Shown piece after piece: positions 4,113 through 39,823 of a stretch of 64,000 nt of DNA. The stretch lies in contig CP066693.1 in NCBI GenBank assembly GCA_016432525.1, positions 416,815 through 480,814 of the forward strand. Direction: 5' to 3'. The number at the start of each line of letters is the position of its first letter. Within the stretch, counting starts at the first letter, position 1. The DNA comes from Candidatus Woesebacteria bacterium. Its GTDB lineage: Bacteria > Patescibacteriota > Microgenomatia > UBA8517. A program made the position numbers and the translations under genes. The notes under the pieces were generated by a model. It did not search any database. It worked only from the letters and a program-made list of their open reading frames with translations, and was not told where the DNA came from.

Positions 4113-4201
4113 TTTAGCTTAAATTTATATCAATATGATACAATATCGCTGGTAATAAAATACTATACTAGGTACCTTAACAAAGGTTGAAAGGTTGCAA
4201 A

Positions 4202-18934: not shown

Positions 18935-19396
18935 ATGCAAAATCCAGTTCCAGCATCAGTTCCACAATCAATTCAAAATTCCCCGATTGTTCAAAAATTC
19001 TCTGATTCAAATAAAAAAAACCTTTATATTACAGTTTTTGCAATTCTTATAATTTTGGCCGGCATAGCCTCAGGATTTTTCCTTTCAAATCTCAAAAAAA
19101 GGCCATCATCAAAGCTAGCCGCTCCATCAGCTATTCAAACCAAAAACGAGGTTGGTATAACTGATGAGAAAACTTTTAAAGATTCAGCAGAAGGTGTCTT
19201 AAAAGAAGGTGGAATAGAAGGTGAAGGGATGTTTCACTTAGAGCGTCCAGGAGGAGATTCCCAAAATGTATATCTAACTTCAACTGCCGTAGATTTGGGA
19301 AGTTTTATTGACAAAAAAGTCCAAGTCTGGGGTCAAACAATTGCCGCACGTAAGGCCGGGTGGTTAATGGACGTAGGCAAAATAAAAATGCTTTAA
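18935..19396 (+). CDS. Membrane-anchored hypothetical protein
   Basis: 153 aa with an N-terminal TM. Its stop overlaps the ftsE start. Confidence 0.4.
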   Translation: MQNPVPASVPQSIQNSPIVQKFSDSNKKNLYITVFAILIILAGIASGFFLSNLKKRPSSKLAAPSAIQTKNEVGITDEKTFKDSAEGVLKEGGIEGEGMFHLERPGGDSQNVYLTSTAVDLGSFIDKKVQVWGQTIAARKAGWLMDVGKIKML

Positions 19397-20061
19397 TGAT
19401 TGAGTTTAAGGGCTTAACCAAAACTTTTGGCAAGATAGTAGCTCTCCAAGATGTAACATTTAAAGTTGACGATGGAGAGTTTATTTTCATTGTCGGTCCC
19501 TCAGGAGCCGGGAAAACAACTCTTTTGAAACTTCTTACAAGAGAATATAAGCCAACCCGAGGCGAAATTCTTATGGATGATGTTGACATAGTTAAATTAA
19601 AAAAGAAAGATATCCCTCTTTTAAGACAAAAAATAGGTGTAGTCTTTCAGGATTTTAAACTTCTTCCCGAAAGAACTTTAAGAGAAAATATAGAGATTGC
19701 TCTAGCGATCAAGGGAGTGGACAAAGGGCAGTGGATAGCTCGTGTTGACCAGGTTTTAAAGCTTGTCGGACTTTCTGATAGATCAGATCTTTTTCCAGCT
19801 CAACTATCAGGCGGAGAAATTCAAAAAGCTTCAATTGCCAGAGCACTAGTTATTAATCCTGTCTGTATTTTTGCAGATGAACCAACAGGTAATCTTGATT
19901 GGGGAACGGCAGATTTGATCATGGATTTACTTACAAAAATCAATAAAGAAGGAAAAACTATAATTGTCACCTCACACAATAAAGAATTAGTTGAAAAATT
20001 TGGCAAAAGAGTAATAGAAATGAAAAATGGTAAAGTTATAAAGGACAGAAATACAAAATGA
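19396..20061 (+). CDS. ftsE: Cell division ATP-binding protein FtsE
   Basis: Walker A GPSGAGKTT, signature LSGGEIQKASIARAL, Walker B IFADEPTGNLD. Followed by ftsX. Start set at MIEFKGL (ATG overlapping the upstream stop). Confidence 0.9.
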   Translation: MIEFKGLTKTFGKIVALQDVTFKVDDGEFIFIVGPSGAGKTTLLKLLTREYKPTRGEILMDDVDIVKLKKKDIPLLRQKIGVVFQDFKLLPERTLRENIEIALAIKGVDKGQWIARVDQVLKLVGLSDRSDLFPAQLSGGEIQKASIARALVINPVCIFADEPTGNLDWGTADLIMDLLTKINKEGKTIIVTSHNKELVEKFGKRVIEMKNGKVIKDRNTK

Positions 20062-20975
20062 AAAGAGATCTAAAAACCAGTTTTTCATCAATTAGAAGAG
20101 CACCTTTCCAAGCTTTGGGTGCGATTTTATCTTTAGCTCTTACTTTTTTTGTTACAACCTTTGTCTGTATCCTGGTTTACAGTAGTTCCAAAGCTTTAGA
20201 ATTTTTTGAAACCCGCCCTCAAATAATTGTGTTTTTAAAGCCAGATGCCAAGTCGGACGCAATCGCCACTCTTCAACAAAAATTAAAACAAGATTCAAGA
20301 ATAAAAGATTTAAATTTTATCTCCAAAGAAAAAGCACTCGAAATCTATAAAGGCTCAACAAAGGACAATCCTCTTTTAGGTGAACTTGTTTCTCCTCAAA
20401 CTCTTCCTTCAAGTTTAGAATTTTCAGTCAAAAGTCTTGATGATGCAACAAATGTAATAGATTCAATTAAAAATGAAGATATTGTAGATAGTATTGGCTT
20501 CACAGGAAGCCTTGGTGGTCAGTCAACTCTTTCAGATGTTATAAATCGGCTAAGGAGAATAGGTTTTTATATAAGAGTAGGCGGAATCATCTTTGTCTCA
20601 GTTCTTTTAATGACATCTCTTATGGTTTTAATGGTTGTCATTGGAATGAGAATTACAACCAAAAGAAATGAAATCGAAACGCTTGCTCTTCTCGGCGCAA
20701 AACCAGGCTTTATCCGAAGCCCGCTAATGTTTGAAGCAATAAATTATGGAATTTTCGGAAGTATCTTAGGCTGGCTTTTATCAGTTCTTATTATTCTTTA
20801 TTTAACTCCTACTCTTATTAATTTTTTTGGAAATATCCCCATTCTTCCTCAAAAATCCATTGAATTTTTTGAACTTTTAGCTCTTATTCTTTTAGGTGAA
20901 ATTTCGGTAGGAGTAATTATTGCAATGTTTGCAAGTTCGATTGCAATCTCCCGTGCTCTCTCAGTTAAAAAATAA
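20058..20975 (+). CDS. ftsX: Cell division permease FtsX
   Basis: N-terminal TM, large periplasmic loop, three C-terminal TMs. ATGA overlap with ftsE. Confidence 0.85.
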   Translation: MKRDLKTSFSSIRRAPFQALGAILSLALTFFVTTFVCILVYSSSKALEFFETRPQIIVFLKPDAKSDAIATLQQKLKQDSRIKDLNFISKEKALEIYKGSTKDNPLLGELVSPQTLPSSLEFSVKSLDDATNVIDSIKNEDIVDSIGFTGSLGGQSTLSDVINRLRRIGFYIRVGGIIFVSVLLMTSLMVLMVVIGMRITTKRNEIETLALLGAKPGFIRSPLMFEAINYGIFGSILGWLLSVLIILYLTPTLINFFGNIPILPQKSIEFFELLALILLGEISVGVIIAMFASSIAISRALSVKK

Positions 20976-22141
20976 TGAAATCGGGAAAACCATTTATCTT
21001 AATTGTTGTCGCTTTTTTATGTTTCTTCTTAGTCACTTTTAAAATTAAAGCCCAAAATTGTGATGCAAATTGCCAACTTCAGCAAATTCAGTCACAAATA
21101 AGTGAATACCAAAATAAACTAAATTCATTAAAAGCTCAATCAAATACTCTCTCAAATCAAATTGCCCAATTCGATGCTCAAATAAAATTGGCTGAGCTAA
21201 AAATTCAGGAAACCGAAAACCAAATCACGCTTTTAGCAAGTAGGATAGATCAGCTTCAAGGCTCGCTTGATTCACTTTCCAAAGCGTATGATGCCAGAGT
21301 TGTTGAAAGCTACAAAATGGATAGAGTAGGTGAGCCCTTACTTATTTTAGTAACAGCAAATAATTTAAGAGAGGGAGTTTCTCGATTCTTCTATCTTCAA
21401 AAAATACAACAAGCTGACCATAATCTTTTAGTCAAACTTTCAAATGCCCAAAATAATTACAAAAAAGATAAGGTAGACATGGAAGATTTAAAGAAAAATT
21501 TACAAGATCAAGAAGATAAACTTTCTTCGCAAAAGTCAGCAAAATCAAATCTCTTAGCAGTCACAAAAAACGATGAAGTAAGATATCAGCAACTTCTTGC
21601 ATCAGCCCAGGCTGAACTTGAAGCAATCCAGGCAATTATTGCAGGAAAGGGAACTGAGCAGGATGTTGGTCATGTCGGTGAAGGATCAAAAATTGCATCA
21701 GTTATTGATGGCCCATCTTGTAATTCCGGAGGAACCCATACACATTTCATCGTAAGCCAAAATGGGTCAACTCAAAATCCCTTCAATTATTTAAGAGGAG
21801 GAGTTGATTATGAAAACTGCTCAGGATCATCTTGTGGTTCATCAGATGGTGACCCATTCAATCCTTCAGGTTCTTGGAATTGGCCAGTTGATTCCAAAAT
21901 CAAATTCGCTCAAGGTTATGGATCAACTTGGGCTGTAAAAAACACATGGGTAGGACAAATCTATAATTTCCATAATGGAATTGATATTCAATCTGAATCA
22001 AATTCAGAGGTTCACGCAGTTAAAAGTGGGGAGTTGTACAGAGGAAGTTATTCAGGTCAAAATGGCTGCGCGTTGCGTTATGTTCGTGTTCACCATGATG
22101 AAGCTGGCCTCGACACCTTCTATCTTCATGTAAATTATTAA
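20975..22141 (+). CDS. Coiled-coil M23 peptidase domain protein (EnvC/PcsB-like, FtsEX partner)
   Basis: Long coiled coil followed by M23 motifs HTHFIV and FHNGIDI. Immediately downstream of ftsEX. Confidence 0.8.
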   Translation: MKSGKPFILIVVAFLCFFLVTFKIKAQNCDANCQLQQIQSQISEYQNKLNSLKAQSNTLSNQIAQFDAQIKLAELKIQETENQITLLASRIDQLQGSLDSLSKAYDARVVESYKMDRVGEPLLILVTANNLREGVSRFFYLQKIQQADHNLLVKLSNAQNNYKKDKVDMEDLKKNLQDQEDKLSSQKSAKSNLLAVTKNDEVRYQQLLASAQAELEAIQAIIAGKGTEQDVGHVGEGSKIASVIDGPSCNSGGTHTHFIVSQNGSTQNPFNYLRGGVDYENCSGSSCGSSDGDPFNPSGSWNWPVDSKIKFAQGYGSTWAVKNTWVGQIYNFHNGIDIQSESNSEVHAVKSGELYRGSYSGQNGCALRYVRVHHDEAGLDTFYLHVNY

Positions 22142-25461: not shown

Positions 25462-26763
25462 GTGAAAAGAACTAAAAAATATATGAACAAAAAATTGTTA
25501 AGTATAATGTCAGCATTTGTTCTTTTAGGTTCATCACTCACTCCAGCTTTTGCAGGAACTACAACTCTTGAAATAACAGGAAATGGTGCTGATACCCAAA
25601 ATAATACAAATGTAACTTCAACTTCTAATACAGTTGTCTCCCAGACCAATGATGCGAATATAAACAATAGTGTTGTATCCAATTCAAGTTCAGGTGGAAA
25701 TACTGCAGATAAAAACACAGGAGGATCAGTCTCTGTTGATACTGGTGATTCCAAAACTGTAGTAAACGTTCAAAACACAGCCAACAGCAATGTTGCTGAT
25801 GTTAAAAACTGCAACTGTAATTCAGATGTTAAAGTCTTAGAAAGCGGCAATGGAGCTGATTCAAAGAACAATGCAAAACTTAATTTGACCGACTCAACAG
25901 TTGTTGCTCAAACCAACAGCTCTGACGTCACAAATAAAGTTAATGCAAGTTCTGATACTGGCTCAAATCAGGCTAGCAAAAATACTGGTGGAGATGTAAA
26001 AGTCCAAACTGGTAGTGCAGTTACAGCCGTTGATCTTAAAACCGATGCTAACTCTAATTGGGCAAAAGTAGGAGGCTCTGATCCATTCGCAACCTCAGGT
26101 AGTGTTGACTTGAGAATTGTTGGAAATGGTGCAGATACCCACAACAAGATTGATCTTGCGCTCGATAGAGATATTCTTTTACAACAGCACAACAACGCAG
26201 ATGTTAATAACTGGGTAGATGCTAAAGCAAATACTGGTTATAACAAGGCCGATAAAAACACTGGTGGATCAGTTTCTGTAGACACTGGTAATGCTACATC
26301 TTTAGTTGCAGCAGATAATGCTGTTAACTTCAATTGGGCAAATATCGACTGTGATTGTTTAACTGATGTATTAGCTAAAGTAGCAGGAAATGGAGATCAA
26401 GCAAAAAGCGACATCAAGGCTAAATTGGTAGATGATAAAAACGTCTTCCAAAATAACTCTTGTGACTCGTTTGGTTATGGCTTCTTCTGGGATTGGAATA
26501 AAGGTGGTTGTGTAAACAACAATCTCAAATCCGATGCCGATACAGGCAATAACAAGGATAAATCAAACACAGGAAATCCTGGTGTTGATCCATCCATTTC
26601 AACCGGAGATGCATGGAGCCAAACCGATATTAAAAATAGCGGAAACTCCAATATCTTTGGTAAATCTGACACAACCGATTCAAATCCTTTTGAAGTAGGT
26701 GGCGTCAATATTAACATTTCCTTTAGTTTGCAGGATTTGTTAAACGCATTACACATAAGTTAA
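25462..26763 (+). CDS. Repetitive Asn/Thr/Gly-rich secreted surface protein
   Basis: Signal peptide. Tandem modules of the type ITGNGADTQNN...NTGGSVSVDTGD.... Confidence 0.6.
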   Translation: MKRTKKYMNKKLLSIMSAFVLLGSSLTPAFAGTTTLEITGNGADTQNNTNVTSTSNTVVSQTNDANINNSVVSNSSSGGNTADKNTGGSVSVDTGDSKTVVNVQNTANSNVADVKNCNCNSDVKVLESGNGADSKNNAKLNLTDSTVVAQTNSSDVTNKVNASSDTGSNQASKNTGGDVKVQTGSAVTAVDLKTDANSNWAKVGGSDPFATSGSVDLRIVGNGADTHNKIDLALDRDILLQQHNNADVNNWVDAKANTGYNKADKNTGGSVSVDTGNATSLVAADNAVNFNWANIDCDCLTDVLAKVAGNGDQAKSDIKAKLVDDKNVFQNNSCDSFGYGFFWDWNKGGCVNNNLKSDADTGNNKDKSNTGNPGVDPSISTGDAWSQTDIKNSGNSNIFGKSDTTDSNPFEVGGVNINISFSLQDLLNALHIS

Positions 26764-26851
26764 TGCGTAAGGGTTAAAAGTTGGTGAGATTCACTTTACA
26801 CTTCGGTGAATCCCCAACAAAAAGCCCGAATTATTTAGAAAGAATTAAAAA

Positions 26852-29068
26852 ATGAATAAAATAAGAAAATTTATAACAGCGTTATCTATAGTTTTAGTTC
26901 TATTTTTCCAAAGTTCAAATATTCTATTTGCTGAAGATTTAAATATTCCAACCCCCCCTCCTGTTCCAACAGCTCCACCAGCTCCTGTTAATAATACAGT
27001 AGTTCCAACTCCTCCCCCAACACCTACTACGCCACCGTTACCTTCATCTCCTACACCCATTCCAACGCCATCTCCTACTCCTTCTGCATCGCCAAATGCA
27101 TCTCCAGTTCCCTCCCAGTCTCCTTTAAATAGCCCAGATCCTACTGCTTCCCCTGTGCCTCTGGTAATCGGAAATACAGGCAATCAAACAGGTAACCAAA
27201 GCTCAAATGGAGAATCAGGCGCAATCATAAAAACAGGCGATGCAACAAACTCAGTAGGAATTGTCTCGAATGCTAATAGTAATTTAGCAAGTTCTCCAAG
27301 TGGGTCAGCAAGTGTAATCGATCCAATAAACACTGGCAATGGAGCATCCACTCAAAATAACAGTTCCGCCTCGATAGTTGATACTAACAACACAAACCAA
27401 CAAAACTCAGCAACAGTCGTTAATAATCTAACTCAAGGTACAGTTACAGGCATTAACACTGCCTCAAAAAATACAGGTGGGGACTCAACCATAAAAACAG
27501 GCGATGCCAACACATCGGGAAGTGTAATTACAGCAGTTAATACCAATGTCGATGGAGTTGCAGTTCACGAGTTTAATATAGCAGATGACCATATAGGCAA
27601 TATTGTAATAAATCCTACTAACGCGAATTGCACAGCAGGCTGCACTGGCAACCCGGGTACTGTTGCAAATACAGGCAACGGAGCAAATTCTCAAAACACA
27701 GCAAATCAAACAAACATAACTAATAACAATACTTTCCAAAAGAATGATGCAACCGTTGAAAATAACTTAACTCTTGCATCTGATTCAGGCCACAATCAAG
27801 CTAACAAAAACACAGACGGTAACTCAAGTATTACAACTGGAAATGCAAATACTGATGCCAATGTTTTAACTTTCGCAAACAATAATATAAGCGGCAACGT
27901 TGTCTACAATGTCGTAAATATCTTCGGAAAATTAACAGGTGATATTGTTCTTCCATCAGAAGCTTTTACTCAGGTGGCGTCAAATTCTTCAACTCCCTCC
28001 AATTCAGGTAATGGTGCAGGTTCACAAAATACAGTCAATCAAACAAACACTAATAACAATAATATTGCTCAAGTCAACAATGCAAATATAGATAACAATT
28101 TAATTTTTGATGCAACAACAGGCAGTAACGAATCAAGCAAAAACACTAATGGGGATTCCAATATTCAAACTGGAAATTCCTCAGTGACAGCTCAAGTGTT
28201 GAATGTTGCAAATTCAAATCTTTCAGGTGGTAATTGGTGGCTCGTAATAGTCAATGAAGCTGGTCATTGGGTTGGAAAAATTCTAGGCTCGCCTGACGGG
28301 GCAACATTTGCAGGATCTCAGGGAACGGAATTCACAGTTGGACCAAATGGAGAAGTAACCGCCACAAATTCAGGCAATGGTGCAGGTTCACAAAATACAG
28401 CTAATGTAACCAATACAACAAACAATAATACAACTCAAACAAATACAGCAAATGTTGTTAATAATATAAACTTGTCTGCTAATACAGGTAAAAATGAAGC
28501 AATCAAAAATACAGGTGGGGACTCAACCATAAAAACAGGCGATGCCAATATAATTGCCAACTTAGTTAATTTTGTAAATAATAATATTGTAGGCACTGGC
28601 AAACTTTTTGTAACAGTCGTAAATGTTTTTGGCTCCTGGATTGGAAACTTTGTAAGTCCAGATGCAGTTGCCAACGCAAACTCAACAAGCACTCAAACAA
28701 CAAATTCCACCAATACGAATAATGATTCTCGTCCAATCGGTGGTGCATCTAGTCAGTCTTCAAATTCAGATCCAAGTTCTTCAAATCCCATAAACAATAC
28801 GAACACGACAACACCAACAACAGCTTCAAATCCTCGAAACATTCAAAACTATATAGCCAGTATTAAAAACGATGCATCAAAAGTTAAACCAGAAGTTCCC
28901 CAGACGCCAACACAAGTTCTTGCCATGACCACAGAAAATCTAAATAATACTTTAATAAACGGTAAAAAATCCTTAAAAATTAATCTTGCCTGGCTCCTAT
29001 TACTAGCCCCAATTTTGTCATTAATTTTTATAGTCCTGCCAAAAATTAGAGGCAGATATGAGAAATAA
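26852..29068 (+). CDS. Large repetitive surface protein with Pro-rich N-terminal region and C-terminal TM anchor
   Basis: Signal peptide, PT-rich segment, many NTGNGA.../NTGGDSTIKTGDAN modules. Exact 42-bp DNA repeats at about 27470 and 28510. C-terminal hydrophobic helix plus KIRGRYEK. Confidence 0.6.
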   Translation: MNKIRKFITALSIVLVLFFQSSNILFAEDLNIPTPPPVPTAPPAPVNNTVVPTPPPTPTTPPLPSSPTPIPTPSPTPSASPNASPVPSQSPLNSPDPTASPVPLVIGNTGNQTGNQSSNGESGAIIKTGDATNSVGIVSNANSNLASSPSGSASVIDPINTGNGASTQNNSSASIVDTNNTNQQNSATVVNNLTQGTVTGINTASKNTGGDSTIKTGDANTSGSVITAVNTNVDGVAVHEFNIADDHIGNIVINPTNANCTAGCTGNPGTVANTGNGANSQNTANQTNITNNNTFQKNDATVENNLTLASDSGHNQANKNTDGNSSITTGNANTDANVLTFANNNISGNVVYNVVNIFGKLTGDIVLPSEAFTQVASNSSTPSNSGNGAGSQNTVNQTNTNNNNIAQVNNANIDNNLIFDATTGSNESSKNTNGDSNIQTGNSSVTAQVLNVANSNLSGGNWWLVIVNEAGHWVGKILGSPDGATFAGSQGTEFTVGPNGEVTATNSGNGAGSQNTANVTNTTNNNTTQTNTANVVNNINLSANTGKNEAIKNTGGDSTIKTGDANIIANLVNFVNNNIVGTGKLFVTVVNVFGSWIGNFVSPDAVANANSTSTQTTNSTNTNNDSRPIGGASSQSSNSDPSSSNPINNTNTTTPTTASNPRNIQNYIASIKNDASKVKPEVPQTPTQVLAMTTENLNNTLINGKKSLKINLAWLLLLAPILSLIFIVLPKIRGRYEK

Positions 29069-30140
29069 AATAACTATCTTCATTCTTCTGTTTTCTTTAG
29101 TTTTCCCGCTAAATTCAGTTAAAGCTGATGAAATAGTAATTACTGCAAATGGCGATTCCTCGAATAACCAAATAACAGTTAACTCAACTAGTGAGACGAA
29201 TGTTACTCAAACAAATGCAAATACAAGTGTTTCAAATAACGTAAATACTCAGGCAAATACTGGCTCAAATTCAGCAAGTCAGAACCAAGGAAATACTCAA
29301 ATCTCAACAGGAGATATTGTAAGTAAAACAGATGTTCAAAATAGCCTAAATACATCAGAAATAAAACCAACTGATTGTTGCAAAACTGGAGAAACAAAAG
29401 TAGAAATTACAAATAATAGCGCCAATTCTCAAAATACTGTGGATCAAAAAACAATAAACACAACAACTGTTTCAGTAACACAATCTGTAAACATTACAAC
29501 TAATATAACAGGAATTGCCAATACGGGTAATAATGTTTCAAATCAAAACGAGGGTAGTGTAAAAATAACAACAGGGGACATTAAAGTTAGCGAAAATCTC
29601 CAAAATGGCCCTGTTGCTTCCACCCAAATAAGTCTCTCTTCAAATCAAACAAAAACTGAAATAAAAATAGCCTCAAATAGCAACAATTCTCAAAATAAAA
29701 TTATAAATTCTAATACAAATAATACAAAAATTATTGATACCAAAAACGCAAATATCTTAAACAATTCAATCTGGATTCTAAATACTGGAGGGAATACGGG
29801 AAACAAAAATAATGGTGATGTAAAAATCACAACAGGCGATATAGATGCGCTTTTTAATATCAAAAATTATCAAATCAATTCCTCTGCGGTTAAAGAGGGC
29901 TGTTTGTGTAGTCAATCATACCCACCACCTGTAGATCCAGGAACCGGAGGAGTGTCTGATCCTTCAGATCCAGGATCAACTGCTAATAGTAGCTCACAAA
30001 ATTCAAGCTCAAACTCGAGCTCTGCTTCAAGCTCATCAGGCTCAGGTCCACAAATTTTGGGTTTAGCGTATACAAATGATATAATTCCCTCTCAAGTTGT
30101 ATGCGACGAGCCAAAATCCTATTACCAGCGTTTTTCTTGA
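29058..30140 (+). CDS. Repetitive surface protein (paralog of the two upstream)
   Basis: Signal peptide. ITANGDSSNNQ / NTGSNSASQNQGNTQISTGD modules. Ser-rich tail. Confidence 0.55.
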   Translation: MRNKITIFILLFSLVFPLNSVKADEIVITANGDSSNNQITVNSTSETNVTQTNANTSVSNNVNTQANTGSNSASQNQGNTQISTGDIVSKTDVQNSLNTSEIKPTDCCKTGETKVEITNNSANSQNTVDQKTINTTTVSVTQSVNITTNITGIANTGNNVSNQNEGSVKITTGDIKVSENLQNGPVASTQISLSSNQTKTEIKIASNSNNSQNKIINSNTNNTKIIDTKNANILNNSIWILNTGGNTGNKNNGDVKITTGDIDALFNIKNYQINSSAVKEGCLCSQSYPPPVDPGTGGVSDPSDPGSTANSSSQNSSSNSSSASSSSGSGPQILGLAYTNDIIPSQVVCDEPKSYYQRFS

Positions 30141-30622
30141 TTTTAGCCGCAACTCTCCTTTGCATAAAATTCAAAACTGAAAAAATTGAGGCAGCTCCAT
30201 CGGTTAGCGATCAAGTTATTGTCTCAAACGAAAAATATGAACCCGACCATATACGAATAAAAGATTTAAATATAAACATTGCAGTTCAGAAAGCCAAAAT
30301 TATAAGAGGTTATTGGGAAGTTTTTGACGACCGTGCAGGTTGGGGAGAAGGCTCATCTCTTCCAGGAAGCATAGGAAATGCAGTCATTTTTGCACATAAA
30401 AGAGCAGGCCTTTTTATAAATCTTGGTGAACTCTCTCCAGATATGCTTATCGAAATCCATTCAGGTCCAAATATTTACAGTTACAAAATGGTTAAAAAAT
30501 ATGAAGTTTCACCATCTGACACAAGTGTCGTCAAACCCACTCAAGATGAAACTCTCACACTCTTCACCTGCGCAGGCCCATTCGATACAAAACGCTTAGT
30601 TGTAGTCGCAAAAAGAGTTTAA
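30101..30622 (+). CDS. Sortase family transpeptidase
   Basis: N-terminal signal anchor, His in AVIFAHK, and catalytic TLFTC (TLxTC) motif. Confidence 0.75.
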   Translation: MRRAKILLPAFFLILAATLLCIKFKTEKIEAAPSVSDQVIVSNEKYEPDHIRIKDLNINIAVQKAKIIRGYWEVFDDRAGWGEGSSLPGSIGNAVIFAHKRAGLFINLGELSPDMLIEIHSGPNIYSYKMVKKYEVSPSDTSVVKPTQDETLTLFTCAGPFDTKRLVVVAKRV

Positions 30623-30655: not shown

Positions 30656-32335
30656 ATGAAGATAGCACCCGACCTTCTTAAAAAAATATTAGTTAGCTCT
30701 CACTATGTATCTGAAAAAGATTTTGACGATGCCTATGCCTCAGCTCAAGATTTAGGCCGCGACATAGACGATGTTCTAATTTTTAGAAATATCATTACAG
30801 AAGAAGCTCTCGGAAAGCTTATTGCAGATCATTTAAAAGTTCCCTATGTTCCAATTAGCCACGAAGTTATAAAAGATGAAATCTTAACTCTTGTCCCCGA
30901 AAAAATTGCCCGTTCTTATCGTATTGTTCCATTTGGACGCGAAGGAAACAAGCTGAAACTTGCGATGGAGGATCCAACCAATTTTGAAGCTTTAGAGTTT
31001 ACTCGTCGTCATACAAACTTAGAAGTTGAGCCTTACTATGCAACCCCAGATGAAATAAGAAAAGCTCTCGGTCAATACAAGAAAAATATTAAAGAAGAGT
31101 TCACAAAAGTAATCGAAGAAAGTATCAAAAAAGTTCCAACTCTCACTGATGATTTATCAAAAGCAGCCGAAAATTTACCAATCATAAAAATTCTAGATAC
31201 AGTTTTAGAATTTGCAGTTGCCGAACGTGCATCGGACGTCCATATAGAAAGCCAACTCGATTCAGTCATTATCCGTTATAGAATTGATGGAGTTTTAAGA
31301 GATATTATAAAACTTCCAAGAGGAATTGAAGCTGGCCTAGTTGCCCGTATAAAAATTCTTTCAAACTTAAAAATTGATGAACACAGAATCCCTCAGGATG
31401 GAAGATACAAGTTTGATATAGACGAAGACGTCATAGCCTTAAGAATTTCAATTATTCCGGGCTTTTATGGAGAAAATGTGGTCATGCGTCTACTTCCTGA
31501 GTCAGCCCGTCCTCTCTCTCTTAATGAATTAGGTCTAACTGGAATTAATCTTGATGTTGTTAAAGCAAATATGTATAGGCCCCACGGAATGTTACTTGTA
31601 ACAGGTCCAACAGGCTCTGGAAAAACTTCAACTCTTTATTCAATTTTAAATATTTTAAATACAGTAAAAGTCAAAATTTGCACAATTGAGGATCCAATTG
31701 AATATGGTATTCCGCGCGTTAATCAAATTCAAGTTAATCCAAAAGCAGGAATGGAATTTGCAACAGGCCTTAGAGCCCTGCTTCGTCACGATCCTAACAT
31801 AATAATGGTAGGAGAAATTAGAGACAAAGAAACAGCACAGATTGCAGTCAATGCAGCACTCACTGGGCACTTAGTTCTTTCAACTCTCCACACTAACGAT
31901 GCAGCCGGTGCAATACCAAGACTTTTAGATATGGGAGTCGAAGGATATCTTGTTGCCTCTACAACAAATGCCATAATTGCCCAAAGATTGGTTCGAAAAA
32001 TTTGTTCCGCCTGCATTACTGAGTATAGTCCGCCAATTGCAATTTGGGAAAAACTCGCAGCTGATGGTATCAAGCTAACCAATCAAAAATTTTTCAAAGG
32101 TAAAGGTTGTGCTGAGTGTAATTTTACAGGTTTTATGGGTCGCATTGGAATTTTCGAAGTCTTAAGTGTAAGTGAGACAATCCAAAAGCTTCTAACCCAA
32201 AAAATTGTAAGCGATCAAATTAGAGATGTAGCAGTAAAAGAAGGTATGGTTACAATAATGCAAGATGGTCTTGATAAAGTAGCATCAGGGCTGACAACCA
32301 TTGAAGAAGTTCTAAAAGCAGTTACAGAAAACTAA
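30656..32335 (+). CDS. pilB: Type IV pilus assembly ATPase PilB/GspE family
   Basis: Walker A GPTGSGKTST, Asp box, Walker B IIMVGEIRD, His box, tetracysteine CSAC...CAEC. Confidence 0.9.
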   Translation: MKIAPDLLKKILVSSHYVSEKDFDDAYASAQDLGRDIDDVLIFRNIITEEALGKLIADHLKVPYVPISHEVIKDEILTLVPEKIARSYRIVPFGREGNKLKLAMEDPTNFEALEFTRRHTNLEVEPYYATPDEIRKALGQYKKNIKEEFTKVIEESIKKVPTLTDDLSKAAENLPIIKILDTVLEFAVAERASDVHIESQLDSVIIRYRIDGVLRDIIKLPRGIEAGLVARIKILSNLKIDEHRIPQDGRYKFDIDEDVIALRISIIPGFYGENVVMRLLPESARPLSLNELGLTGINLDVVKANMYRPHGMLLVTGPTGSGKTSTLYSILNILNTVKVKICTIEDPIEYGIPRVNQIQVNPKAGMEFATGLRALLRHDPNIIMVGEIRDKETAQIAVNAALTGHLVLSTLHTNDAAGAIPRLLDMGVEGYLVASTTNAIIAQRLVRKICSACITEYSPPIAIWEKLAADGIKLTNQKFFKGKGCAECNFTGFMGRIGIFEVLSVSETIQKLLTQKIVSDQIRDVAVKEGMVTIMQDGLDKVASGLTTIEEVLKAVTEN

Positions 32336-32336
32336 A

Positions 32337-33566
32337 ATGCCGATTTTTTCGTACAAAGCCCAAGATCAAAAAGGAAAAATTGTTGAAGATACGATACAAG
32401 CTTCAGGAAGAGATGATGCCCTATCAGCACTCAAAGGAGCTCATCTTCAAGTTCTAACTCTAAAAGGCATAGATACAGGGGGAATTGTCATTGGAGGGAG
32501 AGGTTCGGTTTCAGTAGAAGAAAAAGCTGTTTTTTGTAGGTTTATGGCTACAATGCTTAGAGCTGGACTTTCAATTCCGGAGGCGATTGAAATATTACGC
32601 GCAGAAACAAAAAAACCCAAAATGAAAAAGATTCTTTCAGATCTCTCTTTTCAAACTCAAAAAGGAAAAAACTTGACATCGGTTCTTTCCGAATACAAAG
32701 AAGATTTTGATCCAGTTTTTCTTACAATGGTTCGTGTTGGAGAAGAATCAGGAACTCTAGAAAAATCATTTGAATATCTGGCAAAACAGTTAGCTGCCTC
32801 TCATGATTTAAACCAAAAAATAAAAGGGTCTTTAATGTATCCCGCAATAATAGTAGTAGCGATGATTGGAAATGGTGTTGTTATGACTTTTTTTGTTCTT
32901 CCAAAAATCGCAACAGCATTTTTAAAATTAGACGTTTCCCTGCCTCTTCCAACAAAAATAGTCCTTAATTTTGGTGCTTTTGTTGGGAGCCACATTCTTA
33001 TGTCAGCTATCGCAATGCTTGTTGCCTCAGCTCTCACTTTCCTTTTTTTCTATTTAAAACCAACCAGAAATTTAGTATTTAAAGTTATCAAAAGATTTCC
33101 AGTGCTTAAAAAAATCATCAATCAAATCGATATTGCCCGCTTTGCACGAACTCTTTCAACTCTACTTAAAAGTGGAGTTTTGATAACTGACGCCCTAGAT
33201 GTTACAGCTGATGCTTTAACCAACCCAGATTTCAAAAGAGAAGTAAAAGGTTTTAGTCTTGGAATTGAAAAAGGCGAAAGTCTTTCAAAAGTCCTCTCAA
33301 AAGTGGGTGATCTTTTTCCTCCAGTCATGCTTCAAACAATAAGAGCTGGGGAAAAGACAGGTACTTTGGATCAGACTTTAGATGAAATGGCAGTTTTTTA
33401 TGAAAGCGAAGTTGATTACGCTCTTAAAAGAGCAACCTCGCTTCTAGAGCCACTTTTGATGCTTTTTATAGGAATAGTAGTAGGAGTCATGGTTATCATT
33501 ATGATTGCACCAATTTACGGAGTTATCGGAAGTTTACAACAACAGGTAGGTAACCAAGGAAGATAA
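32337..33566 (+). CDS. pilC: Type IV pilus platform protein PilC/GspF family
   Basis: Two GspF repeats (LSIPEAIEIL.. / ..ITDALDV..) and three TM segments. Confidence 0.85.
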   Translation: MPIFSYKAQDQKGKIVEDTIQASGRDDALSALKGAHLQVLTLKGIDTGGIVIGGRGSVSVEEKAVFCRFMATMLRAGLSIPEAIEILRAETKKPKMKKILSDLSFQTQKGKNLTSVLSEYKEDFDPVFLTMVRVGEESGTLEKSFEYLAKQLAASHDLNQKIKGSLMYPAIIVVAMIGNGVVMTFFVLPKIATAFLKLDVSLPLPTKIVLNFGAFVGSHILMSAIAMLVASALTFLFFYLKPTRNLVFKVIKRFPVLKKIINQIDIARFARTLSTLLKSGVLITDALDVTADALTNPDFKREVKGFSLGIEKGESLSKVLSKVGDLFPPVMLQTIRAGEKTGTLDQTLDEMAVFYESEVDYALKRATSLLEPLLMLFIGIVVGVMVIIMIAPIYGVIGSLQQQVGNQGR

Positions 33567-33568
33567 AT

Positions 33569-34249
33569 ATGAAAAAATTTCTACCTTTATTAGTTCCAGT
33601 TTTGGCAGTTTTAAGTTTAATTCTTGTTCTTTTAGTTTTACCCAAAAACGAAACCTCTAAAAATCAAACCCAAGTTGATTCAATACAAATAACCGACCAA
33701 AAAACTGGTACAAAAATGACTTTCACAAGAGACGGCTTTGTCGAGTATCAAAATGGAAGTATCACAAAAACTCAGATTTGGGATCCAGCAAAAATTGCAA
33801 GTTTTTTTGAATATATTCAGAAAAACTTAAATAGCGCCACAGGGGAAAATGTTTTATTAACCATAAATGGCCAAACTTCATCTGGGAGTTTGGGCTCAAA
33901 TGATGAACTAATAAATACAGTTATAAACCAAATTTCAGGAGGAGGAGGCAATGGAGGGGGAAACCAGTCTTTCTTTTCAACCTCAACTCCAGTTCCCGCG
34001 GGATCGGGAAGTGGATCATCTAATCAAACCCCATCTCCAGGAGCTCCATCGTGGTGTATTCATTGGAGACTAAGTTATTGTGCGGACCAAATGGCTCCTC
34101 CTCCAACCTCAACTCCAGTTCCCGGTGGTGCAATTAACGCTACAGATTGTAGCCAGTGGAATAGCCAAAGCTCCTCTCAAACAACCTTAAGCGACTCAAA
34201 TTGCAATAAAACTACCCCAACACCTAACTCTAATCCTTATGGGTACTAG
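33569..34249 (+). CDS. Secreted hypothetical protein with Gly/Ser/Pro-rich regions
   Basis: N-terminal TM/signal. No prepilin motif. Confidence 0.4.
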   Translation: MKKFLPLLVPVLAVLSLILVLLVLPKNETSKNQTQVDSIQITDQKTGTKMTFTRDGFVEYQNGSITKTQIWDPAKIASFFEYIQKNLNSATGENVLLTINGQTSSGSLGSNDELINTVINQISGGGGNGGGNQSFFSTSTPVPAGSGSGSSNQTPSPGAPSWCIHWRLSYCADQMAPPPTSTPVPGGAINATDCSQWNSQSSSQTTLSDSNCNKTTPTPNSNPYGY

Positions 34250-34251
34250 TT

Positions 34252-35646
34252 TTACTGTTCACTCCAGCTAATAAATTGATAACTTGATGAAGTAGGAAAG
34301 TATGGGGGAGGAGCATACAAAATATTTGGATCATAATTTATAGTTCGTGTAGTGAATCCAGATTCGGGTGGACTATTAAAATTCCAATAAGATTTATTGT
34401 AAGAAATCAAAGCCCCGTTTATAGTCAAAGAATTCTTAACTGCCCCGGTACTAGTTCCCTGGCACCATGCTGCATAATCTCCTCTTATTACTTGTCCTCC
34501 TTGAGCCATCAAAACAGCATCAATTATAAAATTAGTGGGGATATTTCTCGTATATATAATATCGTTTTGTGCTATAAGTCCCAAAACACTAGTTCCATCC
34601 AGTGCTGGATATGTAATGTTATTAGGAATCCAAATATCAATATGGCTAGTCTGAACTGGAAATCCAGCTGCAACCACCTCAGTTCTTCCATTTACAACCC
34701 CTTCAACCCACAAATAGTCTTCAGAAAAAATAATTGGTTTATCAGATACATTATAAGTTCCAATTGTCTGCTCAGTAGAAATTGTTTCATTTCTTCTTCT
34801 ACATCCTCCTAAGTCATTTGCTCCCACGCCTCCATTTGGTAAATAACTATAAATAGAGCTCGTTGCAGTTACTTTTTTTACAGTGAAAGTTCCATTCGCA
34901 GCAAAAATTAAATGATAACCCAAGGCTCCCGATGGCCCTAAATAAAGACCTGATGATTGGGCAGCTGTCTTCATGTTCGCAAAATCAACAGAAACAGAAT
35001 TAAAATCTACCGAAGTTACCGGAAATTGCCACAAATTTGAATTTGGCCCTGATCCCCAAACTCCTGGCATTGTTTTCGAAGGCGAGCACCCAGTTTCAGT
35101 TCCACATGTATAAGTGGCAACAGCACTTTCAACAATACTATTATTCACTCCATCCATTCTTATTCCGTTATTCGAGTGCACTGCCCCATTGACTGTAATC
35201 CCGGATCCATACCAACTTGATGCATTCGATAAAAATAAATACTTTGCAAACGAAGGTTTTCCATATTGTGCGACAATAGTTCGCTTTATTGTAGGGTATC
35301 GATCGCTCCAACCTGTAGATTTTATTTTTACAATCGAAGAACCATTAACAGGAGCAGTTATATCAAGACTATATTTTCCAATTTCAGCTCCCTCAGGGTC
35401 TTTATAGGAATGAACATATGGGCCAGGATTGCCTGTTCCATCTTTAAAATCCGCTGGAGCATGTGCTAAATGCCATCTGTAATAATTTGCCCCAGCCTCA
35501 GCTATATCTATTGCCATTTCAGATCCAACTTGCCTATGAGAAAAATCAAGCTGGGTTGTCAACACATAAATAAGTCCATAAATGACTACGATAAAAGCTC
35601 CAGTTACAATCAACAATGCTGGTGTTATTGTTCCTTTATTTTTCAT
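34252..35646 (-). CDS. Pilus-associated large protein (possible minor pilin/adhesin), N-terminal TM
   Basis: 464 aa with an N-terminal hydrophobic helix. In an operon with pilin-like genes on the minus strand. Confidence 0.35.
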   Translation of the reverse strand: MKNKGTITPALLIVTGAFIVVIYGLIYVLTTQLDFSHRQVGSEMAIDIAEAGANYYRWHLAHAPADFKDGTGNPGPYVHSYKDPEGAEIGKYSLDITAPVNGSSIVKIKSTGWSDRYPTIKRTIVAQYGKPSFAKYLFLSNASSWYGSGITVNGAVHSNNGIRMDGVNNSIVESAVATYTCGTETGCSPSKTMPGVWGSGPNSNLWQFPVTSVDFNSVSVDFANMKTAAQSSGLYLGPSGALGYHLIFAANGTFTVKKVTATSSIYSYLPNGGVGANDLGGCRRRNETISTEQTIGTYNVSDKPIIFSEDYLWVEGVVNGRTEVVAAGFPVQTSHIDIWIPNNITYPALDGTSVLGLIAQNDIIYTRNIPTNFIIDAVLMAQGGQVIRGDYAAWCQGTSTGAVKNSLTINGALISYNKSYWNFNSPPESGFTTRTINYDPNILYAPPPYFPTSSSYQFISWSEQ

Positions 35647-36260
35647 AAATTATCTTTAAGGGTTCGAATCATTGCAGCAGAGTCCATTACATAATCATGA
35701 ATCGAATCGTTTGTAATTGTATTCACTCTTAAATATATTTTAACCATACGAATTGCAGATAAGTTAACAGGTGAACTCATTGGGTTATTAATAGCATCAG
35801 TTGGCCAATTTTTATTGTAATAAGAAAAAACAGGCGTTGCTCCATTTTGTATAGAATCAGCAACAGATCTTAACTGTTCATTAGCAGGTGGGTAAGTTAT
35901 CGGGTTACCTGATGGCTTTATTACTCCTTTCATTAAACTTGTTCCATTCATAAAATATCTAACTCTTTCGGTTTTCCCATCAGCATCAATGTCCGAATAA
36001 AAAGTAAGCGATGTATTGGTTGCAGATTCAATAACATAAGCTCCATTATCCCCATTTCTAGAAGTTCTAATTTCGCGAACCAGAGCGCTCACGTTACTAT
36101 TTGCATATTCGACTTTCAAAGACCCGTTATAAACTGCCACCTGGCTTTTACTTATAATATATTGAAGCCCAGCAATAGCTACCCCGATAACCACCATAAC
36201 AGTTAACCCAATAGAGAGCTCAATTAATGTAAATCCAGAATTTTTGTATTTCTTTTTCAT
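35643..36260 (-). CDS. Type IV pilin-like protein (prepilin N-terminal cleavage/methylation domain)
   Basis: KNSG|FTLIELSIGLTVMVVIGV class III signal. Confidence 0.7.
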   Translation of the reverse strand: MKKKYKNSGFTLIELSIGLTVMVVIGVAIAGLQYIISKSQVAVYNGSLKVEYANSNVSALVREIRTSRNGDNGAYVIESATNTSLTFYSDIDADGKTERVRYFMNGTSLMKGVIKPSGNPITYPPANEQLRSVADSIQNGATPVFSYYNKNWPTDAINNPMSSPVNLSAIRMVKIYLRVNTITNDSIHDYVMDSAAMIRTLKDNL

Positions 36261-37585
36261 TGTGGTGTCATTATTACTTTTTCAACACTGGATCCTATTA
36301 CATTTACGGTTCCTGAATAGTTTAAATATCCAGAAACAGTTGCTAAAAGCTGGTAAGTTACATTTTGCAAAGATGAGAAAAACGCTTGTCCAAAGTCAGG
36401 ATTCGTAGAAAGGCCAGATGAAGCAGTTGCTGTTAAAGCTCCAGTCGATATACTCGCAGAAACTGAAGAAATTGGGTTATTAGCTGGATCGGTAAATATC
36501 GTAAGTAAACTGTTTGAAGAGCTAGAAGTCAAAGAGAAAGAAAAAGGCAAAGTTGTATTTGCATTCAAAACTACTGGCAAAAGAGGATATGAACCTGAAA
36601 GATTATAAGAAGAATTAAGCGATGTAAATTGATAAGTATCCCACTCCATATTATTAAGTGTAAGGTTTCCGGATCCATCGGTCGTAAGTGTTTGATCATA
36701 TTTATAAACAGGTAACCCTTGAGAGTCAGTTCCAATTGTTTTACTTCCGCGAAGTCTGAATTGCTGTGAAGCTAAAGGAGAAAAACCACTTGCCCGGTCA
36801 TTTGTTGATTTCATCTGAAGAGTTGAAACACTATCAATTGCAAAACTTACTTGTGTAAGCTGAGATTGTAAAACACTTTGCCATGGTTTCGCAGGATTTA
36901 TTACTTCGGCAGTTGAGTATGTTCGATCAGTACTATAATTAGTTTTAGTAACAGTAATCTGATAACACGAATTGCAAGGCAGAGCACCAGGTAAAATCAC
37001 AAGACCGTTAATGTCAGTTGTAATAGTTAAATTAACCGGCGGATTAACAGAAGTTGCCACAATATTTACATTTGCCTGAGGCACAGCTTTCCCAGAAGAA
37101 TCAAACACAAGTATCATCAAAGTTCCCCCTCCATTTGTAGTTTCGACTCCATTTGGCGCAACATCAGTAATCAAGGTTATGGTATCTCCCCTTGATGCCC
37201 CGATTCCTCCCCAGCTCACATCAACTCTCACCCTTTTATAGTCAGTTGGTAATAAATCGTTAGGAGCAGTCCCATCAAAAGGATCATCAATATAAATAAT
37301 CGTAATTTTAACAGTGTAATTTAATCCATTTCTTGAAACAGTTAGGTTTTGAGGAAGAGTTCCACTTGGAATTCCACCCACAGTCCCAACACTGTTATAA
37401 GGAAGGTTTCGAATAGTTTCCATCTGCTCAGTTGCTATTTGTTTAGCGTTGGCCCGCGCATCAGTATAGGTAAGAGTTTCATACGAAGTAAGAACTAAAG
37501 ATATTATAGTCTGGGAAAGTATAGTCAAAAGTCCCATCGAAATAATAAGTCCAATATAAACCTGTCCCCTCAAGACTCTAGGCAT
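36257..37585 (-). CDS. Minor pilin-like protein (PilV-like N-terminus, degenerate)
   Basis: N-terminal hydrophobic helix similar to pilin N-termini but lacking the canonical G-F. Operonic with pilins. Confidence 0.35.
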   Translation of the reverse strand: MPRVLRGQVYIGLIISMGLLTILSQTIISLVLTSYETLTYTDARANAKQIATEQMETIRNLPYNSVGTVGGIPSGTLPQNLTVSRNGLNYTVKITIIYIDDPFDGTAPNDLLPTDYKRVRVDVSWGGIGASRGDTITLITDVAPNGVETTNGGGTLMILVFDSSGKAVPQANVNIVATSVNPPVNLTITTDINGLVILPGALPCNSCYQITVTKTNYSTDRTYSTAEVINPAKPWQSVLQSQLTQVSFAIDSVSTLQMKSTNDRASGFSPLASQQFRLRGSKTIGTDSQGLPVYKYDQTLTTDGSGNLTLNNMEWDTYQFTSLNSSYNLSGSYPLLPVVLNANTTLPFSFSLTSSSSNSLLTIFTDPANNPISSVSASISTGALTATASSGLSTNPDFGQAFFSSLQNVTYQLLATVSGYLNYSGTVNVIGSSVEKVIMTPQ

Positions 37586-37621
37586 TAATTAAGTATACTG
37601 TATAATGTAATTATCTGCCCT

Positions 37622-39046: not shown

Positions 39047-39567
39047 AAATAAATTTCTTGAAAAAAACACCTCTTCTTTTGATAGGCGACATTTTGGCAA
39101 TCATAGCTTTAATAGTAATTTTTGTTAAGTTAGAGGGTATTGCTAATCAAATTCAAAAAACGAGAACAGAGCTTTTAAGATATACTCCTGTAAATACAGA
39201 AGCAGTCAAAACTGAACTTGAAAAAATCAAAGACCAAGAAAACATTTTAAAATCAACTTTTCCCAAAGAAATAGCTCTCGCTGATTTTATAAATAATGTC
39301 TCAAACCTTAAAAGTGATAATATTCTTAAAAATTTCTCTTTCCCTTCAGATGATGTAGTCAAAGACAAAACCGGTTTTTCAATCCTTCCAGTTATTTTCA
39401 ATTTTCAAGGAAGCATGGCTGATATTAATGCATCCCTCAAAAAATTAAACGGTTTGCCGTATTTAATAAGATCAGTTGATTACAAATTAACAATAAATGA
39501 AGCCTCAAATTCAGCCACTCTTGATTATGGAGGTTTCCTATACGCAGATGAAAACTTTAAAAATTGA
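39043..39567 (+). CDS. PilO-like pilus assembly protein
   Basis: 174 aa with an N-terminal TM then coiled coil. Position after pilM-N. Confidence 0.4.
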   Translation: MKINFLKKTPLLLIGDILAIIALIVIFVKLEGIANQIQKTRTELLRYTPVNTEAVKTELEKIKDQENILKSTFPKEIALADFINNVSNLKSDNILKNFSFPSDDVVKDKTGFSILPVIFNFQGSMADINASLKKLNGLPYLIRSVDYKLTINEASNSATLDYGGFLYADENFKN

Positions 39568-39778
39568 CCGATTTTATATTGTGTTAGTTTCGATGCTAGT
39601 TGTTCTGGCAGTTATTACTTTCTTTACTTTAAGAACAGTCTTTGGATCAATTAATAAATCCCACGAAGTCGATACAACAATTCCCCAAGATAACAACTTA
39701 AGCATAAATGCAAATTCGTTAAACGAAGCCTTAAAATACGTTTCTCAAAAGAATTTCACTCCACTTGACTTAAAGTAA
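39548..39778 (+). CDS. Small membrane protein
   Basis: Start MKTLKIDRF at 39548 overlaps the upstream stop. Single TM. Confidence 0.3.
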   Translation: MKTLKIDRFYIVLVSMLVVLAVITFFTLRTVFGSINKSHEVDTTIPQDNNLSINANSLNEALKYVSQKNFTPLDLK

Positions 39779-39823
39779 GCAAAGTGTGTAACCTTAAATA
39801 ATAAGAAAAGGGGGTGAGTAAAC

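Follow-up and report, generated by a model that had tools for sequence, protein, structure and literature searches.

Sortase-linked surface proteins built on an undescribed repeat domain in a conserved Microgenomates operon

Introduction

Bacteria of the candidate phyla radiation (CPR) account for much of bacterial diversity. Most have not been cultivated, their lifestyle is one of attachment to other cells, and to our knowledge their envelope proteins are almost unknown. A locus from Candidatus Woesebacteria raises the question of what such cells might carry on their surface. In a 64,000-nt stretch of contig CP066693.1 (GCA_016432525.1), here called the window and the source of all coordinates given without another locus name, four genes in one direction encode three secreted proteins (A, B, and C) and a sortase. 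What holds each protein at the cell, and do the three act separately or as parts of one structure?

The products make up a sortase-linked surface-protein system built on an undescribed domain family, and their genes are accompanied by an undescribed leader RNA (Table 1). The interpretation we favor, at a probability of roughly 0.55, is that this is a conserved Microgenomates (CPR) envelope operon whose three paralogous, Sec-exported beta-repeat proteins are each attached to the cell in a different way and co-assemble.

Table 1. Features of the operon and its control elements (window positions; aa, amino acids)
Feature	Start	End	Strand	Description
Transmembrane protein, first cluster gene	24452	24988	+	178 aa; N-terminal transmembrane segment, extracytoplasmic beta domain, conserved
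DUF2292 (YezD-like) protein, conserved second gene	24990	25181	+	63 aa; no signal peptide
Sigma-70-like promoter candidate	25227	25256	+	TTGACA, 18 nt, TATAAA; read from sequence
Leader RNA	25291	25381	+	Single-stranded GCUAACCGCC, long hairpin with invariant base (ACGGAGGC...GCCUCCG), then U8
Protein A	25462	26763	+	433 aa; signal peptide, four units, conserved C-terminal tail
Intercistronic hairpin	26771	26827	+	CACUUCGG-type loop, followed by an A-run and not a U-run; z = -4.1
Protein B	26852	29068	+	738 aa; signal peptide, Pro-rich linker (aa 28 to 105), repeats, stalk, transmembrane tail
44-nt repeat, copy 1	27467	27510	+	Encodes KNTGGDSTIKTGDA; repeat unit 1 of B
44-nt repeat, copy 2	28505	28548	+	Repeat unit 4 of B
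Protein C	29058	30140	+	360 aa; signal peptide, three units, Pro/Ser-rich linker, remnant motif QILG-LAYTN
LAYTN	30063	30077	+	aa 336 to 340 of C; aligned position of the sortase recognition motif
Sortase	30101	30622	+	173 aa; N-terminal transmembrane anchor; His in FAH, Cys in TLFTC, Arg in KRL; clade ii

Results and discussion

A, B, and C share one repeat unit

Proteins A, B, and C are mutually paralogous (blastp E values of 1e-43 to 1e-29), and each opens with a Sec-type signal peptide recognizable in its sequence. All three are rich in Ser, Thr, and Gly as well as in Asn (15 to 18%), and the mature proteins are acidic, with isoelectric points of 4.3 to 4.65. Together with the open reading frames and the Pfam assignment of the sortase (see below), these results bear out a first-pass annotation of this DNA, which had described three paralogous Asn/Thr/Gly-rich secreted proteins with a sortase encoded behind them. 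The repeat domain family on which A, B, and C are built is so far undescribed; none of the three had a match in Pfam (E ≤ 0.1) or NCBIfam, or in a profile search of sequences in the Protein Data Bank (PDB).

The same annotation had divided the repetitive regions into modules of 25 to 35 aa. A repeat hidden Markov model and a DNA period of 264 to 366 nt instead define a single unit of ~85 to 90 aa, and the two motif types assigned to separate modules are its two ends. The model finds four units in A, a half unit plus four in B, and three in C. The consensus of the unit, V-x-I-S-GNGAdSxN ... T-x-V-x-Q-x-N-x-A-x-I-x-N-x-V-x-A-x-A-x-TGxNxAxxNTGGxVxIxTGDAxTxVxVxNxANSN, has Asn, Gln, and Gly positions that are invariant across all units, as expected of Asn/Gln ladders.

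The three proteins differ in what surrounds the units. In A, whose true start is probably the ATG at 25483, the units (aa 34 to 122, 124 to 206, 216 to 301, and 305 to 398) are followed by a conserved tail motif, NxNxSFxLxDLLxAL; homologs of A are ~410 to 440 aa long, and a membrane or wall anchor was found in none of them. B has a half unit plus four full units each followed by a hydrophobic beta insertion, and a disordered Ser/Thr/Asn stalk (aa 611 to 703) leads to the word INLAW, a transmembrane helix (aa 712 to 737), and a cationic tail. The units of C lie at aa 25 to 107, 113 to 183, and 200 to 285. Further small secreted paralogs with one or two repeat units and no anchor, the two-repeat forms having a CCC linker, occur at other loci (L011, 15125 to 15724, minus strand; L022, 14500 to 15093, minus strand; L023, 8728 to 9324, minus strand; L017, 2408 to 2761; and L019, 7856 to 8206), several of them just past the sortase on the opposite strand.

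Structure predictions with AlphaFold2, run on alignments of 110 to 120 sequences, gave an all-beta model for A, with a mean predicted local distance difference test score (pLDDT) of 76.9 and a predicted template modeling score of 0.71. The repeat cores of B, also all-beta, were modeled at a pLDDT of >90, between a disordered Pro-rich N-terminal linker and the disordered Ser/Thr/Asn stalk that precedes the terminal transmembrane helix. Each unit was modeled with an unusually long continuous strand of 31 to 33 residues, along which the chain returns in strands of 4 and 11 to 18 residues (in A, also one of 3 residues) that are broken at the Gly-rich words TGxN, NTGG, and TGDA. Foldseek comparisons of the A and B models with the PDB, and of the A model with BFVD, returned nothing significant (best E value, 0.011; template modeling score [TM-score] of at most 0.1); the top nonsignificant neighbors were FapC (9u4u; E = 0.011), CsgA (8c50), and right-handed beta-helices. 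A parallel stacked architecture would fit these neighbors. The beta-solenoid or beta-helix raised in the first-pass annotation is compatible with the confident all-beta repeat cores, whose only neighbors, beta-solenoids and functional amyloids, stayed below significance.

Gene order and copy number are strictly kept

Synteny was compared across 24 homologous loci (L numbers), 19 of which came from a genome scan with a nine-sequence alignment and 5 distinct ones from contig look-ups. The core order was a transmembrane protein with a beta domain, DUF2292, the leader RNA, A, and B, with C and the sortase as optional additions. Every locus had one A and one B, in the same order. C followed B in 15 loci and a sortase followed C in 11 of these, while no sortase was present in the six loci lacking C.

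The family is large and has remained without a functional name. More than 340 homologs of A were found in a word-indexed search and at least 564 of B, and a profile of the A family (alignment A3), searched exhaustively over 1.84 billion proteins, recovered 3,131 representative clusters at E ≤ 1e-3, a number that includes B- and C-type relatives, and 1,012 at E ≤ 1e-30. Every homolog in the A/B/C family is annotated as hypothetical, as is HYS03_01475 from Candidatus Woesebacteria at NCBI, which is 100% identical to C. All named sources are Microgenomates or Patescibacteria bins, or bins that appear to be mislabeled. Several of the metagenome-assembled genome records for L005, L008, L009, L014 to L016, L019, and L022 are titled "uncultured Gammaproteobacteria," "Pseudomonadales," or "Nanoarchaeia archaeon"; such titles on genomes with a Microgenomates-type operon are probably taxonomic mislabels.

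The two genes ahead of A belong to the conserved unit. A homolog of the 178-aa transmembrane protein, which has weak matches to DUF5067/DUF4352 (E values of 0.003 to 0.006, below the cutoff), holds the same position in the homologous loci that extend that far. The second gene product is a DUF2292 protein (PF10055; E = 4.5e-9; 36.2 bits against a cutoff of 22), and its gene lies directly 5' of A in nearly all loci; a search for relatives of known structure found none for this protein.

This constancy bears on the idea that A, B, and C are independent adhesins, that is, separate surface or secreted binding proteins used, for example, in host attachment, with a sortase that merely anchors C. Asn/Thr-rich beta-repeat proteins are common among adhesins, small secreted one- and two-repeat paralogs exist as well, and type IV pilus genes (PilB and PilC) adjoin the operon in the window, L004, L005, and L008. 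However, adhesins usually vary in number and length, whereas here one A and one B of constant length occur per locus in strict order, with 40 to 60% identity conserved across classes. Because adjacency to pilus genes is limited to those four loci and absent from most, the pilus neighborhood falls outside the conserved unit. We regard independent adhesins as a doubtful explanation.

Sorting signals on C covary with the adjacent sortase

The first-pass annotation had called a sortase with a TLFTC motif directly downstream of the repeat proteins, and this was confirmed by a match to PF04203 (E = 1.2e-20; 73.9 bits against a cutoff of 26.6). The FAH, TLFTC, and KRL motifs align with those of the other cluster sortases and of chain 4d70_A, the nearest solved structure by sequence (E = 6.5e-7), which we take to be a class D sortase. 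Among the NCBIfam sortase classes (A to F and GN), none reached its cutoff with the window sortase, the best being SrtD at 43.7 bits against 140. The cluster sortases form two clades with 20 to 32% identity between them. Clade i is marked by ILQTC and by 9 additional aa inserted behind FAHSS, and clade ii has TL(F/Y)TC without the insertion. Clade i sortases scored best against class C (64 to 66 bits against a cutoff of 160), and neither clade reaches the cutoff of any class.

The two clades sit beside different signals. Homologs of C end in a tripartite signal, in which a motif is followed by a hydrophobic segment and then by a basic tail, and the motif is of two kinds: LPxTG (LPATG, LPVTG, LPITG, LPSTG, and others) in ~37 homologs, and [IV][LI]GLSxT[SGNA] in 10 homologs, to which the LAYTN of the window is added. 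The nearest relatives of the window's C have LS[DFANP]T[SGAN] where it has LAYTN. Clade i sortases are beside LPxTG in 6 of 6 loci and clade ii sortases beside L(S/A)xT(S/G/N) in 5 of 5, for an agreement of 11 of 11. Rough, unbootstrapped neighbor-joining trees built for A and for B place L008, a clade i locus with LPATG, amid the type ii loci of the window and L005, and for this reason the C-sortase pair appears to travel as a unit and not simply to follow host phylogeny. Locus L025 has two C-type genes, both with LPSTG.

Because the kind of motif covaries with the clade of the adjacent sortase and because C carries the canonical signal, C is likely the cognate sortase substrate as judged from sequence, with a noncanonical motif in the window's clade. 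Aligning the C termini of homologs, the route proposed in the first-pass annotation for locating a recognition motif, thus did reveal one (LPxTG or GL(S/A)xT(S/G/N)), and it is on C. The proposal of a sortase-dependent surface system with a noncanonical motif holds as far as the sortase linkage and the variant motif of this clade are concerned, and it is corrected as to the carrier, which had been named as B.

In the window itself, C has lost part of the signal. After LAYTN come 20 nonhydrophobic residues, ending at a stop inside the sortase gene, which C overlaps by 40 nt. The best 15-residue Kyte-Doolittle mean of this tail, DIIPSQVVCDEPKSYYQRFS, is 0.8, compared with 1.6 to 3.0 in the other C homologs, bar one whose basic tail is long. 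Both the NCBI and the Logan assemblies encode this 360-aa product. The window's C may be released and not anchored, its anchoring to the wall may be impaired because the membrane-retention tail is lost, or C may be decaying. A programmed frameshift joining C to the transmembrane segment of the sortase was considered and rejected, since there is no canonical slippery site and the N terminus of the sortase aligns with homologs; what looks like a transmembrane peptide in the other frame is the N-terminal anchor of the sortase itself, because it aligns with the N termini of homologous sortases.

An operon of several paralogous secreted proteins followed by a sortase has the shape expected of a Gram-positive-type pilus, in which A, B, and C would be pilins joined by a pilin-specific sortase, and clade i sortases do score best against class C. 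Those scores (35 to 66 bits for the cluster sortases) fall far short of the cutoff of 160, however, and every subunit of such a pilus carries a sorting signal, which was seen in no homolog of A and is absent from B. Neither an invariant Lys nor a pilin motif appears in the alignment of C, the predicted fold is not immunoglobulin-like or CnaA/CnaB-like, and no immunoglobulin-like Foldseek neighbor appeared. A sortase-polymerized pilus is the least probable of the alternatives considered here and, in our judgment, very improbable.

The membrane tail of B is conserved independently of sortase

Among 120 homologs, B has a median length of 745 aa (interquartile range, 733 to 760) and always four full units. 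Its C terminus reads (K/R)xxINLAW and continues into a transmembrane segment with a basic tail, the motif N(L/F/I)A(W/Y/F) being present in 111 of the 120. None of the 120 homologs has LPxTG, and no sorting pentapeptide directly precedes the transmembrane segment. Whether a locus has a clade i sortase, a clade ii sortase, or none, the tail is alike. The transmembrane segment with cationic tail but no LPxTG described in the first-pass annotation is confirmed, next to an N-terminal Pro-rich segment and a C-terminal Ser/Thr/Asn stalk, and C-terminal tails are conserved, as INLAW in B and as the tripartite signal in C homologs; what did not survive is the interpretation of the B tail as a sortase signal, since INLAW is conserved without sortase as well.

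The earlier version of the idea would have B itself as the sortase substrate, via a noncanonical motif that lies within the transmembrane and cationic tail or ahead of it. B does have a hydrophobic segment, a basic tail, and a conserved motif at the edge, and the window's B contains VLAMTT, a word similar to the LAYTN of C. Other type ii loci do not keep the LAMTT-like word, however, and it stands ~25 aa before the transmembrane segment, while the same tail accompanies either sortase clade or none, LPxTG is lacking throughout, and the canonical signal is on C. We consider B an improbable substrate. A word of the form x[VI]L[GA] does recur 20 to 30 aa before the B transmembrane segment, in 61 of 120 B homologs, and 0 to 10 aa before the LPxTG of C (in the window, VLAM at aa 692 to 695 of B and ILG at aa 333 to 335 of C). 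A 1,088-aa protein, P0234, was considered as a B-C fusion and rejected as a read-through in which the B transmembrane segment is followed by a C signal peptide.

A covarying leader RNA precedes A

In the leader RNA, a single-stranded GCUGACCGC(A) is followed by a hairpin whose lowest 9 bp (AAACGGAGG/CCUCCGUUU) are invariant and whose upper stem is variable, and then by a U-run (fold z = -5.4). In an alignment of 12 loci, 93% of cells were paired, compared with 40 to 55% in slid controls, double changes occurred in 14 of 23 pairs, and 0 of 500 shuffles matched the observed values. With a covariance model, 22 of 24 loci (the window, L001, L003 to L012, L014 to L019, and L021 to L024) each gave a single full copy, always lying between DUF2292 and A, and the 467 kb searched contained no other. 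When metagenomes were scanned, all instances that had a terminator and sufficient room were followed by an A-like gene 40 to 410 nt downstream. Rfam yielded no match at gathering scores across the whole window, and a local E-value scan gave only subthreshold microRNA hairpins. The possibility that the hairpin is a common terminator of this genome was rejected, as the motif occurs once in 64 kb.

A promoter candidate lies upstream of this RNA, and TTGACA-N17/18-TATAxT recurs between the DUF2292 stop and the RNA motif, 5' of the terminator, in at least 12 loci. The generic scan omitted the window's copy because position 6 of its -10 hexamer is A; consensus promoter and terminator scans were not above chance. 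Because a conserved, covarying hairpin with a U-run always stands before A with a promoter upstream, the leader looks like an attenuator or terminator that gates A. A role for DUF2292 as a trans-acting factor on the leader would be speculative.

Downstream of A, a strong hairpin is present in the majority of homologous A-B gaps, in many of them with an identical loop word; it may stabilize the mRNA or serve as a processing element that sets the A:B ratio. In polycistronic operons, genes for abundant subunits are often followed by such an arrangement. The promoter of its own, the leader RNA, and the stabilizing 3' hairpin suggest that A is the abundant or major subunit, as support for this role and not as proof of it.

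A major structural gene with a stalked, membrane-bound partner also invites comparison with two-component surface layers (S-layers). In the SlaA/SlaB system of Sulfolobales, a free outer subunit is combined with a stalked partner on a C-terminal transmembrane anchor. In the same manner, A could form a two-dimensional lattice or canopy that a stalked B holds off the membrane, with C as an extra tether to the wall. SlaA and SlaB are unrelated proteins, whereas the partners here are paralogous and have a third, sortase-anchored member. In favor of an S-layer, A is constant in size and acidic, B has spacers and a transmembrane anchor, and the expression signals around A fit a major structural gene. 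CPR cells do show S-layers: cryo-electron microscopy of groundwater CPR cells revealed an S-layer, with periodicities of 3.8 and 10 nm, on cells lacking an outer membrane (bioRxiv 10.1101/2020.05.14.094862). The Patescibacteria S-layer candidates retrieved from a survey's supplement are from Parcubacteria-type and Kazan lineages, and "Microgenomat" and "Woesebacteria" gave no match there (bioRxiv 10.1101/2024.05.28.596244). Against an S-layer, Pfam and NCBIfam scans detected no SLH, CWB2, or other domain known from S-layers or their anchoring, the 41.5 kDa of mature A is low for an S-layer protein, and no solved S-layer protein was among the Foldseek neighbors of the A and B models. An S-layer of this kind is possible, if on the unlikely side.

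A proposed co-assembly with three modes of attachment

The interpretation that we prefer, of one co-assembling structure, would work as follows. After export of A, B, and C by Sec, B would stay in the membrane through its INLAW anchor, with its repeat domain held out on long spacers rich in Pro and in Ser/Thr/Asn. C would normally be joined covalently to the wall by its dedicated sortase, through LPxTG in most lineages and through GL(S/A)xT(S/G/N) in that of the window. The shared repeat may mediate beta-edge or stacking contacts, and anchor-free A could be retained on B and C through such contacts between repeat domains and extend from them. The analysis shows the paralogy of the three proteins, their conservation and synteny, their export and anchor signals, the link of C to the sortase with covarying motifs, and a confident all-beta repeat model. 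We infer the co-assembly, by analogy with the systems discussed below, as well as the role of A as major subunit and the geometry of the polymer, which could be a fiber or an S-layer.

The closest functional analogs would be the chaplins with their class E sortases and the curli proteins CsgA and CsgB, with an SlaA/SlaB-type S-layer as the main rival geometry. In Streptomyces, the long chaplins ChpA to ChpC carry LAxTG and are attached by class E sortases, the short chaplins ChpD to ChpH are secreted, and the anchored forms are thought to hold the polymer of free chaplins on the cell. Chaplins and the proteins described here both come from monoderms and comprise paralogs that share one beta-forming domain, some sortase-anchored by a variant motif (L-A-x-T-G in chaplins, L-S/A-x-T-S/G here) and others free. 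The chaplin domain is hydrophobic and 40 aa long, whereas the unit here is ~88 aa, polar, and Asn/Thr/Ser-rich, and Pfam found no chaplin domain (DUF320) in A, B, or C. The chaplin sortase is of class E, against which the sortases here score 34 to 50 bits with a cutoff of 160, and only this operon has a membrane-anchored third paralog (B).

Curli depend on a comparable division of labor, CsgA being dependent on CsgB. Like CsgA/CsgB and Pseudomonas FapC, the system here may pair a paralogous major subunit with a cell-associated nucleator, and the imperfect repeats share conserved Gln, Asn, and Gly positions with those of CsgA and FapC, including a GNGA word. Homology of the repeat to curli was rejected on hhalign, Pfam, and Foldseek results: the curlin repeat (PF07012) gave no Pfam hit at E ≤ 0.1, hhalign against a hand-typed E. 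coli CsgA sequence gave an E value of 0.24 and a probability of 0.2, and the solved CsgA structure (8c50) scored E values of 0.28 with the A model and 3.7 with the B model, at a TM-score of ~0.05. The unit here is also ~4 times longer than curlin's, and export would be by Sec in a monoderm without a CsgG- or FapF-type outer membrane pore.

Known class A to F sortase-substrate pairs (LPxTG, LPNTA, and LAxTG) resemble the pair here in the His, Cys (TLxTC), and Arg residues of the enzyme and in the tripartite signal of the C homologs, and class B, D, and E sortases are likewise dedicated enzymes encoded beside a single substrate. They differ in that the clade ii motif replaces Pro with Ser or Ala and often also Gly with Ser, and in that the window's substrate has neither the hydrophobic nor the basic part.

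Several observations weigh against a co-assembling, sortase-tethered structure. The window's own C has no hydrophobic segment and basic tail after its motif. The association of motif with clade was counted on 11 loci with kinship ignored and alongside unbootstrapped trees. In at least 6 loci, A and B are found with neither C nor a sortase, and sortase anchoring must therefore be an accessory feature. Without a significant Foldseek neighbor, the predicted architecture has no cross-check, and the AlphaFold2 results do not separate parallel stacking from long hairpins. Co-assembly itself is argued by analogy.

A literature search for sortases or S-layer proteins in Microgenomates, or for DUF2292, found nothing relevant. 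Given its spread across Microgenomates (3,131 A-profile clusters and at least 564 B homologs), the operon offers concrete candidates for a main surface structure. The two sortase clades, each beside a different signal, constitute a natural experiment in sortase specificity, and a compact, strongly covarying leader RNA without an Rfam family is gained. Surface proteins, sortases, and leader RNA can all be tested without cultivating the organism. A more far-reaching version, which we offer tentatively and think rather unlikely, is that A, B, and C are the Microgenomates surface layer or sheath: a new cross-beta fold with an ~88-aa rung would be tethered by an unclassified GLSxT(S/G) sortase clade and switched on by an attenuator RNA, perhaps read by DUF2292, with INLAW as a possible further sorting signal.

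An exact repeat in B and the question of size variation

The first-pass annotation had reported an exact 42-bp repeat in the middle gene and proposed that recombination there could cause phase or size variation. The repeat is real and 44 nt long. Its copies are 1,038 nt apart and therefore in frame, and their flanks are only 36 to 52% identical. Across 21 other B genes, exact repeats within the repeat domains reached no more than 12 to 23 nt, and the 44-nt repeat is private to the window's genome. Because of this privacy and the divergence of the flanks, the identity points to a recent micro gene-conversion tract private to the window's genome. Recombination between the copies would remove 346 codons in frame, and no sign of such an event was seen. 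Size or phase variation found no support: the lengths of B are tight and its unit number constant across at least 120 homologs, no tandem or simple-sequence arrays were found, and the exact repeat is restricted to one genome.

Neighboring genes and other features of the window

A type IV pilus cluster (30656 to 40303) lies directly 3' of the sortase and encodes PilB, PilC, a PilM-PilN fusion, and two pilin-like proteins with N-methylation motifs. On the other side of the operon, a coiled-coil protein with an M23 peptidase domain (PcsB-like; 20975 to 22141) is preceded by two FtsE/FtsX-like genes (19360 to 20975). The latter call comes from reading the sequence, and Pfam gives ABC_tran and FtsX at the equivalent place in L001. 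The same envelope-remodeling genes (FtsE/FtsX-like and M23 peptidase) are found 5' of the operon in L001 and L023.

Farther downstream, a minus-strand gene (47007 to 48284) encodes a 425-aa protein with a SipW-dependent-type signal peptide (AFFSD), a marginal N-terminal match to Peptidase_M73 (the TasA/camelysin family), and a subthreshold match to CBM6. The adjacent minus-strand gene (45792 to 46919) has weak matches to signal peptidase families S24/S26, and the two resemble a TasA/SipW-like pair, possibly a second fiber system. A similar M73-like gene directly follows C in L024. Near the start of the window, the gene for a radical SAM enzyme (4187 to 5581, plus strand) precedes one for a peptide of 86 aa that is rich in Cys and contains C(G/S)P(D/E) words in repeated copies (5606 to 5866, plus strand), and the two products may be the maturase and precursor of a ribosomally synthesized and posttranslationally modified peptide.

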